A stretch of 64,000 nucleotides of DNA, from the NCBI RefSeq assembly GCF_024298765.1, contig NZ_CP101210.1; one strand, 5' to 3'. This stretch comes from Escherichia coli. Lineage in GTDB: Bacteria > Pseudomonadota > Gammaproteobacteria > Enterobacterales > Enterobacteriaceae. The stretch's first letter is position 1. The number at the start of each line of letters is the position of its first letter. This document shows, piece by piece, positions 6,529-9,500 of this stretch. Made by a program: the position numbers.

Positions 6529-9500
6529 ATCACCGACCAAATTCGAAAAGCCTGCTCAGCGAGCAGGCTTTTTTGCATTTGTTGACCCGTCCTGAATAGC
6601 GTTGACACGTTCCTGACTTAAATCCGGAGAACGTGATGATGACTGAGTTCAAACGCACCCAACGTGATTATCCTCTATCCTTTAAAATAGCTGTTGTTGA
6701 GCAGGTTGAAAAAGGCGAGATGACCTATAAACAGGCCCAGCAGCGGTATGGCATTCAGGGGCGCTCCACCGTTCTTGTCTGGTTACGTAAATATGGCCGG
6801 CTTGACTGGAGTCCTGGACTTCCTGACCTGGTGAAGAGGAAACTGCCTGTGACTCAGACAACTATCCCGCTCACACCCGAGCAAAGAATCAGGGAACTTG
6901 AAGCGCAGCTTGAGCTGGCGAACCAGAAAGCTGAGTTTTTTGAGTCAGTTATCAATGTCCTTAAAAATGATTACGGGGTGAGTATCGTAAAAAAGCGGCC
7001 CGGCAAGTCCTCGCGCAAAGTCCGGCCCCCAAAATAACTGTGACGCGTGCATGTCTGTTCCTGGGACACAGCAGACAGGCATGGTATCAGGACAACACAA
7101 GGCGCAGAAAACGGCAGGAACATCATGCTCAGGTTCTTGATTTTGTTGCCCGTGTCAGATGTCGTCAGCCCCGAATCGGTGCGCGTAAGCTGCACTATCT
7201 GCTGAACACTCAGGCCGATAAAAGGCTGAATATCGGGCGAGACCGCCTGTTTAACCTGCTCGATGAATACCGACTCCTGGTGCCAGTAAAACGGGCATAT
7301 CACAAAACTACCAACAGTCATCATCGCTTCTACCGACATCCAAACCTGCTTAAACCAGGCCCTGAACAGGTTACCGCTCTTGAACCAGAACAGGTCTGGG
7401 TCGCCGATATTACTTACCTTCCACTGCGCAATGGTACGGCCTATCTGAGTCTGGTCACCGATGCCTGCTCCAGAAAAATTATGGGCTACCATGTTGGGGA
7501 AAACCTGCAGACAGAAAATGTGGTAAAAGCGTTCAGACAGGCGCTGAGGCTGAGAAAAACGACGAGTCCCCTGGTGCATCATTCTGACAGGGGGCTGCAA
7601 TACTGTTCAGCGCTCTATCAGTCAGTTCATGAAAGAAATGGAATAACCTGTTCAATGACGGATGGTTATGACTGCTACCAGAACGCACTGGCTGAGCGAA
7701 TAAACGGTATCCTGAAAAATGAGTTTTTACTCTCGCGTCCTGCAGACCTGGCGCAGGCCCGGGAAATGGTCAAAGAGTCCGTGGCAATTTATAACCATGA
7801 GCGGCCACATCTGGCTCTGAAATACAAAACACCCGATGACGTTCATCAGGCGTTTTACAGACAGAAAAGTGTCAACGTATATCAGGACTAGTCATGTAGC
7901 CTATGAGGATGAGAACCTCCGGGGGCAGGGAGGTTCGACTCGAGCGAAGCGAGAGAACGTTGCGCCAGCAACGGCCCGCAGGGCGAGCCACGAAGTGGCG
8001 AGTAATCCTCTATCACCGACCAAATTCGAAAAGCCTGCTCAACGAGCAGGCTTTTTTGCATCTGTAGCCCATGAGGATGAGAACCTCCGGGGGCGGGGAG
8101 GTTCGACTCGACGTAGGCCTGATAAGACGCGCCAGCGTCGCATCAGGCAAATGTACCGGCCCATTGTCGGATTCGGCGCGACCGCCTTATCCGATCTACA
8201 CACCACACATTTCCCTGCCAAATTTGCGCCCCATATCTCACTATCCATTAACGGATTTGTGACAGAAACCATTGTCTTTTTTTATATTTGCTTAAATCTT
8301 TTTTTGCGTTACTTATGGCTGGCGCTGGCATTTTCCGCTGTGCGTTTTAGCGTTCATGGTATTAATCGCTCAGATATCCACCTTTACCTCAGATTTTTTT
8401 CATTAAATGCATAAAACTTAATCACCAAATGTTGCTAAATATTAAGCTGATTGTTCTGGTTGTGTTGGCGTAGCACAAATTTCTCTGCTGCAAATAGCTG
8501 TTTGAAGTTTTTTTAATCTTTGTTTGTGGATTCTCACCGTTGGTGTAAATCCCGGTTGGCTGTATTGACGTTTTCACATTCTGTTGACAGATTGTAGGTC
8601 ACGAGGGGCATTTTATGGAGGATCCGCACTGTTACACTGATGTTAATTAGTACGGCATCCCCACCTCATAACGTTGACCCGACCGGGCAAAAAACAAAAA
8701 AGGTCAGGCAGCGACAACCCACTGCAAAGGGTTAAAACAACAAACATCACAATTGGAGCAGAATAATGCGTATTTCCTTGAAAAAGTCAGGGATGCTGAA
8801 GCTTGGTCTCAGCCTGGTGGCTATGACCGTCGCAGCAAGTGTTCAGGCTAAAACTCTGGTTTATTGCTCAGAAGGATCTCCGGAAGGGTTTAACCCGCAG
8901 CTGTTTACCTCCGGCACCACCTATGACGCCTCTTCCGTACCGCTTTATAACCGTCTGGTTGAATTTAAAATCGGCACCACTGAAGTGATCCCGGGCCTCG
9001 CTGAAAAGTGGGAAGTCAGCGAAGACGGTAAAACCTATACCTTCCATCTGCGTAAAGGTGTGAAGTGGCACGACAATAAAGAATTCAAACCGACGCGCGA
9101 ACTGAATGCCGATGACGTAGTGTTCTCGTTCGATCGTCAGAAAAACGCGCAAAACCCGTACCATAAAGTTTCTGGCGGTAGCTACGAATACTTTGAAGGC
9201 ATGGGCTTGCCGGAGCTGATCAGCGAAGTGAAAAAGGTGGACGACAACACCGTTCAGTTTGTGCTGACTCGACCGGAAGCGCCGTTCCTCGCTGACCTGG
9301 CAATGGACTTCGCCTCTATTCTGTCAAAAGAATATGCTGACGCGATGATGAAAGCCGGTACACCGGAAAAACTGGACCTCAACCCAATCGGCACCGGTCC
9401 GTTCCAGTTACAGCAGTACCAAAAAGATTCCCGTATCCGCTACAAAGCGTTTGATGGCTACTGGGGCACCAAACCGCAGATCGATACGCTGGTTTTCTCT

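Follow-up and report, generated by a model that had tools for sequence, protein, structure and literature searches.

An ISSen1-like insertion sequence downstream of Escherichia coli proK belongs to an IS3-family clade found at a fixed distance past intrinsic terminators

Why should a complete insertion sequence (IS) lie a few nucleotides past the transcription terminator of a tRNA gene? We addressed this question in a 64,000-nucleotide (nt) stretch of the Escherichia coli contig NZ_CP101210.1 (assembly GCF_024298765.1), hereafter the window, in which an IS of the IS3 family occupies positions 6583..7894 on the plus strand, directly downstream of the intrinsic terminator of proK. An original prediction, made from the sequence of the window alone, had described this IS and its neighbourhood and had left its closeness to the terminator without remark as targeting. 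Taken by itself the element is ordinary, being a known and annotated IS3-family insertion sequence; what is new is the terminator-directed behavior of the clade to which it belongs, which is precise to the nucleotide, specific in orientation and extends down to relatives with ~66% DNA identity. The adjacency of IS and terminator at proK reflects the target specificity of the element rather than chance, and we hold it very probable that this intact, ISSen1-like element owes its site to terminator-directed targeting and not to random insertion.

The proK gene, which encodes tRNA-Pro(CGG), lies at 6463..6539 on the plus strand (found by ARAGORN, scored at 60.7 bits by the Rfam tRNA model and annotated in the same locus of E. 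coli strain 104). Its intrinsic terminator follows at 6550..6574 on the same strand and consists of a GC stem-loop at 6550-6568 and a run of six T at 6569-6574. This terminator folds at -19.6 kcal/mol (z=-4.5), was also picked up by our terminator scan, and is unchanged in strains that lack the IS. Beyond it the order is GCATT, TGT, the IS and a second TGT, so that the left end of the IS is separated by 14 nt from the terminator stem, by 8 nt from the T-run and by 43 nt from the 3' end of the tRNA. The original prediction had put the insertion about 40 bp from the terminator and about 870 bp upstream of dppA; the latter distance stands at 872 bp, whereas the former corresponds to the 43 nt that separate the IS from the tRNA end.

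Closer inspection of the DNA beyond the IS revealed a second, unoccupied copy of the proK terminator at 8033..8065 on the plus strand, with a stem-loop at 8033-8051 and a T6 run at 8052-8057 that is followed by GCATCTGT. The copy is a 94% identical direct repeat and its segment 8033..8057 folds at -18.2 kcal/mol (z=-4.9); the promoter and terminator scan missed it because the rule of the scan absorbs the T-run into the stem, and direct folding shows the hairpin. The second copy of the local repeat reads TTTTTTGCATCTGTAGCC at 8052..8069, which bears out the earlier observation that an uninterrupted repeat at 8052 matches the empty site. The second terminator is an equivalent empty target site.

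We fixed the boundaries of the element by comparison. When the IS and one TGT were deleted in silico, the remaining sequence gave a single gap-free match to the empty sites of other E. coli. These sites, which carry CTGC in place of the TTGT of the window, are 99.3% identical in strain E06 and 97.5% identical in J53, a K-12 derivative. Copies that are 100% identical and span exactly the same 1312 bp occur at unrelated loci with different flanks, and the window itself is 100% identical to E. coli strain 104 across 7.3 kb. The IS ends and the 3-bp duplication are established by this comparison, because the empty sites align without gaps and the identical copies share the same ends at other loci. 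The element thereby keeps the coordinates, the length and the TG...CA ends originally proposed for it (TGACCC at the start and AGTCA at the end, or TGAC...GTCA), and the boundaries drawn in this way preserve the proposed TGT target duplication, whose left copy lies at 6580..6582 and right copy at 7895..7897. The terminal inverted repeats, estimated earlier at ~37 bp, are imperfect and have 36-nt arms with 75% complementarity. The left inverted repeat (IRL, 6583..6618, plus strand) is the end that adjoins the terminator T-run, and its first 31 nt are identical in a Salmonella ISSen1-family element; the right inverted repeat (IRR, 7859..7894, minus strand) was paired with IRL in the repeat search.

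The coding capacity of the element is complete. The first gene, orfA, occupies 6636..7037 on the plus strand and encodes 133 amino acids with an HTH_28 domain (Pfam E=1.5e-6); the list of open reading frames (ORFs), the RefSeq coding-sequence start and translation agree on it, with the start at the ATG at 6636 given by RefSeq rather than at the GTG at 6633. The orfB part of the OrfAB transposase follows at 6995..7891 on the plus strand in the -1 frame, and is joined to orfA at an A_AAA_AAG heptamer for programmed -1 frameshifting (6989..6995, plus strand), which is in register with orfA (zero frame GTA AAA AAG). The orfB frame is open up to 7891, and translation through the heptamer gives a 418-residue OrfAB without stops as the predicted frameshift product, in keeping with the two joined ORFs first proposed; the reading frames are intact and not those of a degenerate copy. 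The orfB part matches Pfam rve (E=1e-21) and rve_3 (E=4.9e-20) and the NCBIfam model NF033516 transpos_IS3 (260.2 bits against a cut-off of 160), and the aspartate-aspartate-glutamate (DDE) triad of OrfAB is of the DD(35)E type, with D258 encoded at 7406, D318 at 7586 and E354 at 7694, and with K361 seven residues past E354. RefSeq labels the identical copy in strain 104 'IS3 family transposase, programmed frameshift', and the rve and transpos_IS3 matches together with this annotation uphold the assignment to the IS3 family directly downstream of the proK terminator. A structure that might stimulate frameshifting was not apparent, as the fold of 6985..7075 is no better than that of shuffled sequence (z=+1.8), with pseudoknots lying outside the folding model. 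Non-coding sequence within the IS amounts to 53 nt at the left end and 3 nt at the right end. By its domains, frameshift site, ends and duplication, 6583..7894 is an intact IS3-family insertion sequence. It is probably active, recent movement being indicated by the identical copies at other loci and by the perfect duplications at most full copies, both described below. IS3-family elements transpose by a copy-out-paste-in route, with a circular intermediate in which the two ends abut, and integrate with a 3-bp stagger; their orfA encodes a small regulatory DNA-binding protein, and a -1 slip on A_AAA_AAG yields the DDE transposase OrfAB.

The original prediction had left the name of the element open. 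Its nearest named relatives are Salmonella plasmid elements to which the Prokaryotic Genome Annotation Pipeline (PGAP) gives the label 'IS3-like element ISSen1 family', at 91.1% nucleotide and 94.3% amino acid identity. The ISSen1-family element of Salmonella likewise measures 1312 bp, shares the last 12 nt in addition to the first 31, and has the same orfA/orfB layout and A6G slip site. ISAs31 of Aeromonas, which has been described as ISSen1-related or 'ISSen1-type', is a more distant relative with an OrfB that is ~68% identical. On these sequence identities the window element classes as ISSen1-like. It is probably a separate IS from ISSen1, with a name of its own or still unnamed, because 91.1% nucleotide identity to the PGAP-labelled Salmonella element falls under the ISfinder threshold for isoforms, which we take to be ~95%.

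We next considered whether the position of the IS relative to the terminator recurs at other insertions. Left ends of copies with 100% identity to the window IS lie downstream of fur, feoC and the tRNA-Leu gene leuU, and inside trbJ of an F-type plasmid. At each of these sites, and at a 615-bp derivative of a related IS, the left flank carries a GC hairpin and a run of six or seven T, with the IS at a distance of 14 nt from the base of the stem; a Salmonella ISSen1-family copy has the same geometry of hairpin, T-run and 14-nt spacing. A scan for relatives with the 24-nt left end as query, using one genome per species, returned 78 loci in Erwinia, Serratia, Pantoea, Tatumella, Klebsiella, Kluyvera, Citrobacter and other genera, with ISs that are 66-100% identical in DNA to the window IS. 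Among the 61 distinct gammaproteobacterial left flanks, 80% have C at position -15, 68-91% have T at each of the positions -14..-9 and 75% have T at -6; further upstream, an A-run is seen at -39..-32.

To score these sites we used a strict terminator rule, namely a stem of at least 5 bp closed by G:C, a loop of 3-10 nt and at least 4 T in the next 6 nt. A hairpin and T-run of this kind was observed at 45 of 58 distinct gammaproteobacterial sites, and the distance from stem to IS was 13 nt at 13 of them, 14 nt at 24 and 15 nt at four, so that 41 of the 45 fall at 13-15 nt; a terminator at distances of 12-15 nt was found at 0.4% of 40,000 random control positions in the same loci. Co-oriented ORFs of at least 100 codons end within 150 nt upstream at 43 of the 58 sites (median ~52 nt) as opposed to 17.8% of controls, which argues that the targeted hairpins are real gene-end terminators. 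The hairpin also contributes on top of the T-run, being found at 84% of the T-run-bearing sites, compared to 14.6% of all comparable T-runs (p=1e-27), and the excess holds against non-coding T-runs, of which 37% have a hairpin (p=1e-11). Resemblance between the target and the ends of the IS, as in IS911-type targeting, was not visible by eye.

Several observations weigh against targeting of terminators. One E. coli copy (L090) lies inside an integrase gene without a T-run, and another (L091) lies inside another IS with a T-rich stretch and nothing more. About 13 of the 58 gammaproteobacterial sites fail the strict rule, although in several of them a hairpin with a longer loop can be seen. The sites compared are all insertions that have survived in natural genomes, and selection contributes to the pattern to some degree. 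Finally, the insertions at proK do not add up to independent events. Outside the window, the IS also stands after the second terminator copy (L009) and in a locus that has lost the RtT-like repeat unit described below (L010); we considered that the window and these two arrangements represent separate hits on the two terminator copies and rejected this, since all three share the flank variants TTGT and AGCCTATG. The sequences suggest that the proK arrangements probably stem from one insertion followed by recombination between the repeats.

Hits of the same 24-mer in Acidovorax and Variovorax had no terminators beside them, and we considered loss of specificity in these lineages. We rejected this reading because the 24-mer there corresponds to the right inverted repeat, so that the flanks retrieved were right-hand flanks. 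When right-end flanks of betaproteobacterial elements were scored, a terminator signal was present in at most 2 of 18, which indicates that insertion is orientation-specific. A second replication used the true left end of the betaproteobacterial-type elements in a metagenome scan and yielded 30 distinct flanks on contigs of 58-69% GC. A strict terminator was found at 29 of these 30 sites, compared to 0.38% in the control, and the distance from stem to IS was 13 nt (n=11) or 14 nt (n=13) at 24 of the 29. At the one site that departs from the rule (L113) there is a hairpin but no T-run, and the 14-nt distance is nevertheless kept, which suggests that the stem base is the positional landmark. Spacing of 14 nt was likewise seen at five of five further sites, comprising two of ISAs31 in Aeromonas veronii and those of relatives in Stutzerimonas, Yersinia enterocolitica 8081 and Dickeya. 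To judge from these flanks, an orientation-specific preference for terminators is conserved over a clade that spans Gamma- and Betaproteobacteria.

To our knowledge, most IS3-family members are regarded as weak in target preference, the recognized exception being the group of IS1397, which is specific for repetitive extragenic palindromes (REPs). IS1397 and ISKpn1 are IS3-family members specific for the palindromes of REPs and bacterial interspersed mosaic elements (BIMEs). REP targeting has been reviewed (PMC1525189). The likeness to the window clade is that of IS3-family DDE elements which choose an extragenic palindromic structure and thereby avoid genes; the difference is that IS1397 and ISKpn1 insert within the REP palindrome, whereas the window clade inserts 13-14 nt past a terminator hairpin, with a T-run required or favored, and does so in one orientation. 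The staphylococcal element IS1272/TnSha1 of the IS1182 family targets terminator hairpins without common primary sequence (PMC4923244). It inserts into the stem with partial deletion of the target, without duplication and in both orientations, whereas the window clade leaves the terminator intact, makes a 3-bp duplication and keeps a fixed orientation. Group IIC introns insert just past intrinsic terminators in a fixed orientation and recognize the stem-loop. Insertion of these introns at terminators is cited in PMC3522654 and PMC8643678. They differ in being retroelements that rely on RNA-DNA recognition and reverse splicing in place of a DDE transposase and a circle of double-stranded DNA. 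Tn7 at attTn7, downstream of glmS, is orientation-specific and lands at a fixed distance past the gene end in a harmless site. There, one conserved coding sequence is read by TnsD, in contrast to the generic signal used by the window IS, of which a genome has hundreds.

We found no description, in the searchable literature, of a DDE insertion sequence that inserts in fixed orientation at a constant distance of 13-14 nt from terminator hairpins, nor any paper on terminator targeting by ISSen1-type or other IS3-family elements; this search did not extend to ISfinder, TnPedia or the main IS reviews. The papers found that mention ISSen1 or ISAs31 state nothing about target choice. If the terminator preference is as we describe it, terminators upstream of IS3-type transposase genes would be host target sites and not attenuators carried by the IS, which bears on their annotation, and the published genome-wide excess of terminators upstream of ISs would be explained. 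A DDE transposase that reads terminators would also be a tractable system for the recognition of DNA structure by transposases, and a compact tool for gene-sparing, terminator-insulated integration may become possible.

We propose that OrfAB, produced by the -1 slip on A_AAA_AAG, would drive copy-out-paste-in transposition through a circle. As the flanks show, integration takes place 13-14 nt past the last base pair of a GC-rich hairpin with a T-run (11-14 nt when the 3-bp stagger is counted), and IRL, hence the start of the transposase gene, faces the T-run. The 3-bp staggered cut would leave the TGT duplication. The transposase complex itself may read the signature of hairpin and T-tract on the DNA. 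A guide RNA is implausible because only 53 nt at the left end and 3 nt at the right are non-coding, which makes it probable that the target is read by the transposase complex; we consider direct read-out of the terminator by this complex somewhat better than an even prospect. The host terminator would stay intact, termination at proK would be preserved and no gene disrupted, while the transposase gene would be shielded from read-through, making the terminator a safe landing site. On the broader proposition, that this IS3 clade with its ISSen1-, ISAs31- and Acidovorax-type members in Gamma- and Betaproteobacteria has a protein-only, structure-directed and orientation-specific target choice that leaves the terminator working, our judgment is evenly balanced.

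The same pattern might arise if insertion were random and the terminator association reflected the survival of copies at harmless sites shielded from read-through. Intergenic sites near terminators are expected to be the least harmful, and two E. coli copies do lie within genes without a hairpin; we nevertheless regard survivorship as highly improbable, as the fixed 13-14 nt spacing and fixed orientation go beyond what selection can produce, the hairpin and T-run inside the trbJ coding sequence serve as a target with no change in spacing, the pattern is already seen in copies of 100% identity, which must be recent, and the hairpin excess holds against non-coding T-runs. One could also place the true left boundary of the element further upstream, such that the hairpin and T-run would be a 5' attenuator borne by the IS. 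Terminators upstream of IS3-type transposase genes were read in this manner, as intrinsic parts of the IS, by Naville and Gautheret in 2010 (PMC2965389). For the present element we give this practically no credence, given that the hairpin sequence differs at every site, the proK hairpin is a host terminator present in IS-free strains and the 3-bp duplications bound 6583..7894 and not a longer unit; the comparison with empty sites rules out an IS-borne attenuator for this clade. A more serious alternative is indirect targeting, whereby the transposase does not read the DNA itself but is drawn to a process or factor at terminators, for instance RNA polymerase that pauses or terminates, an R-loop, a hairpin that forms on single-stranded DNA during replication, or a nucleoid protein. 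This would fit the way in which orientation follows the direction of the terminator, with 74% of sites following a co-oriented gene, and stems without common primary sequence suggest that structure or function is recognized; group IIC introns, moreover, use the single-stranded terminator stem-loop. The use of a hairpin and T-run inside a coding region (trbJ) and the like behavior of sites after tRNA genes and in plasmids speak against it, and a polymerase in the act of terminating would be expected to sit over the insertion point, which is 3-6 nt past the usual site of RNA release. We judge indirect targeting unlikely, while granting it a real share of the probability.

The original prediction had also raised the possibility of an effect on dppA transcription, and the insertion may be asked to be mainly a regulatory mutation of this gene. 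The IS is co-oriented with dppA (8766..10373, plus strand; present in the ORF list and annotated in the identical locus) and lies 872 bp upstream of it. Between the two stand the strong, intact terminator copy at 8033..8057, an RtT-like repeat unit and a REP pair; from position 7898 onward the sequence is collinear with that of IS-free strains, our promoter scan found no outward promoter-like site at the right end of the IS, and the junction is present in 71 genomes without sign of further change. With an intact terminator separating the IS from dppA, and with the upstream region of the gene unchanged, its transcription is unlikely to be affected, and we regard the regulatory reading as very doubtful. 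The insertion, chosen for its terminator as proposed above, is on this sequence context probably neutral for both proK and dppA.

Upstream of proK, eptB ends at 6371. On the other side of the IS, the RtT-like repeat unit occupies 7895..8022 on the plus strand and ends in a copy of the proK 3' end; it matches the Rfam RtT RNA family RF00391 at 7889..8022 with 100.4 bits against a gathering score of 45, and RefSeq annotates it as 'RtT sRNA'. The DNA past proK (7895..8111) is tandem-like, with a unit composed of the tRNA 3' end, the terminator, TGT-AGCC...GACTCGA and an RtT-like body. The number of RtT units varies in E. coli, from none in HE_100 and one in E06 and J53 to two as annotated in some genomes, and each extra repeat unit provides one more target for the window IS. 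The REP palindrome pair lies at 8116..8196, between the RtT-like unit and dppA, and matches Rfam naRNA4 on the minus strand with 68.5 bits against a gathering score of 59.5.

A full-length copy of the IS is present in 250 of 5426 complete E. coli genomes (~5%), with some copies on plasmids; genomes with any match, full or partial, have it in 1-5 places each, and the junction of proK terminator and IS is carried by the 71 genomes mentioned above. Perfect 3-bp duplications flank eight of nine independent full copies. The sole exception is the copy at the leuU site (L008), which is 100% identical to the window IS and is flanked by an imperfect duplication, TGT on the left (1498..1500) and TGG on the right (2813..2815).

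Shortened forms of these elements were also observed. The 615-bp derivative (1001..1615 of L092, in E. coli E41-1) is an internally deleted form of a related IS that is ~90% identical and keeps both ends; it is fixed in sequence type 131 (ST131) and other lineages, and the bulk of the 698 records with 80-90% identity are of this form. In L092 it lies 14 nt past a terminator hairpin, beside a type II DNA methyltransferase gene. Plasmids of 40-60 kb in E. coli, Citrobacter freundii and Morganella morganii repeatedly carry a 368-bp piece from the 5' end of the window IS (99.5% identical), which has the look of a truncated remnant conserved on a single plasmid backbone.

Several loci of the wider comparison showed features of their own. 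In the plasmid of E. coli FDAARGOS_1287 (L011, 1330..2986), the IS splits trbJ at an internal hairpin and T-run, and the neighboring trbF is annotated with an internal stop; the F-type transfer region there may be decaying. In the Acidovorax and Variovorax relatives (L041 and L057), the 24-nt left end of the enterobacterial IS recurs unchanged as the right inverted repeat and their own left repeat differs at positions 12-16, the end sequences thus being swapped between the clades. Two ISAs31 copies of Aeromonas veronii (L093 and L094) have different left flanks, with an SDH gene in one case and a PHO4 gene in the other, and share the right flank YcgL-MinC, which suggests rearrangement via recombination between IS copies in one genome.

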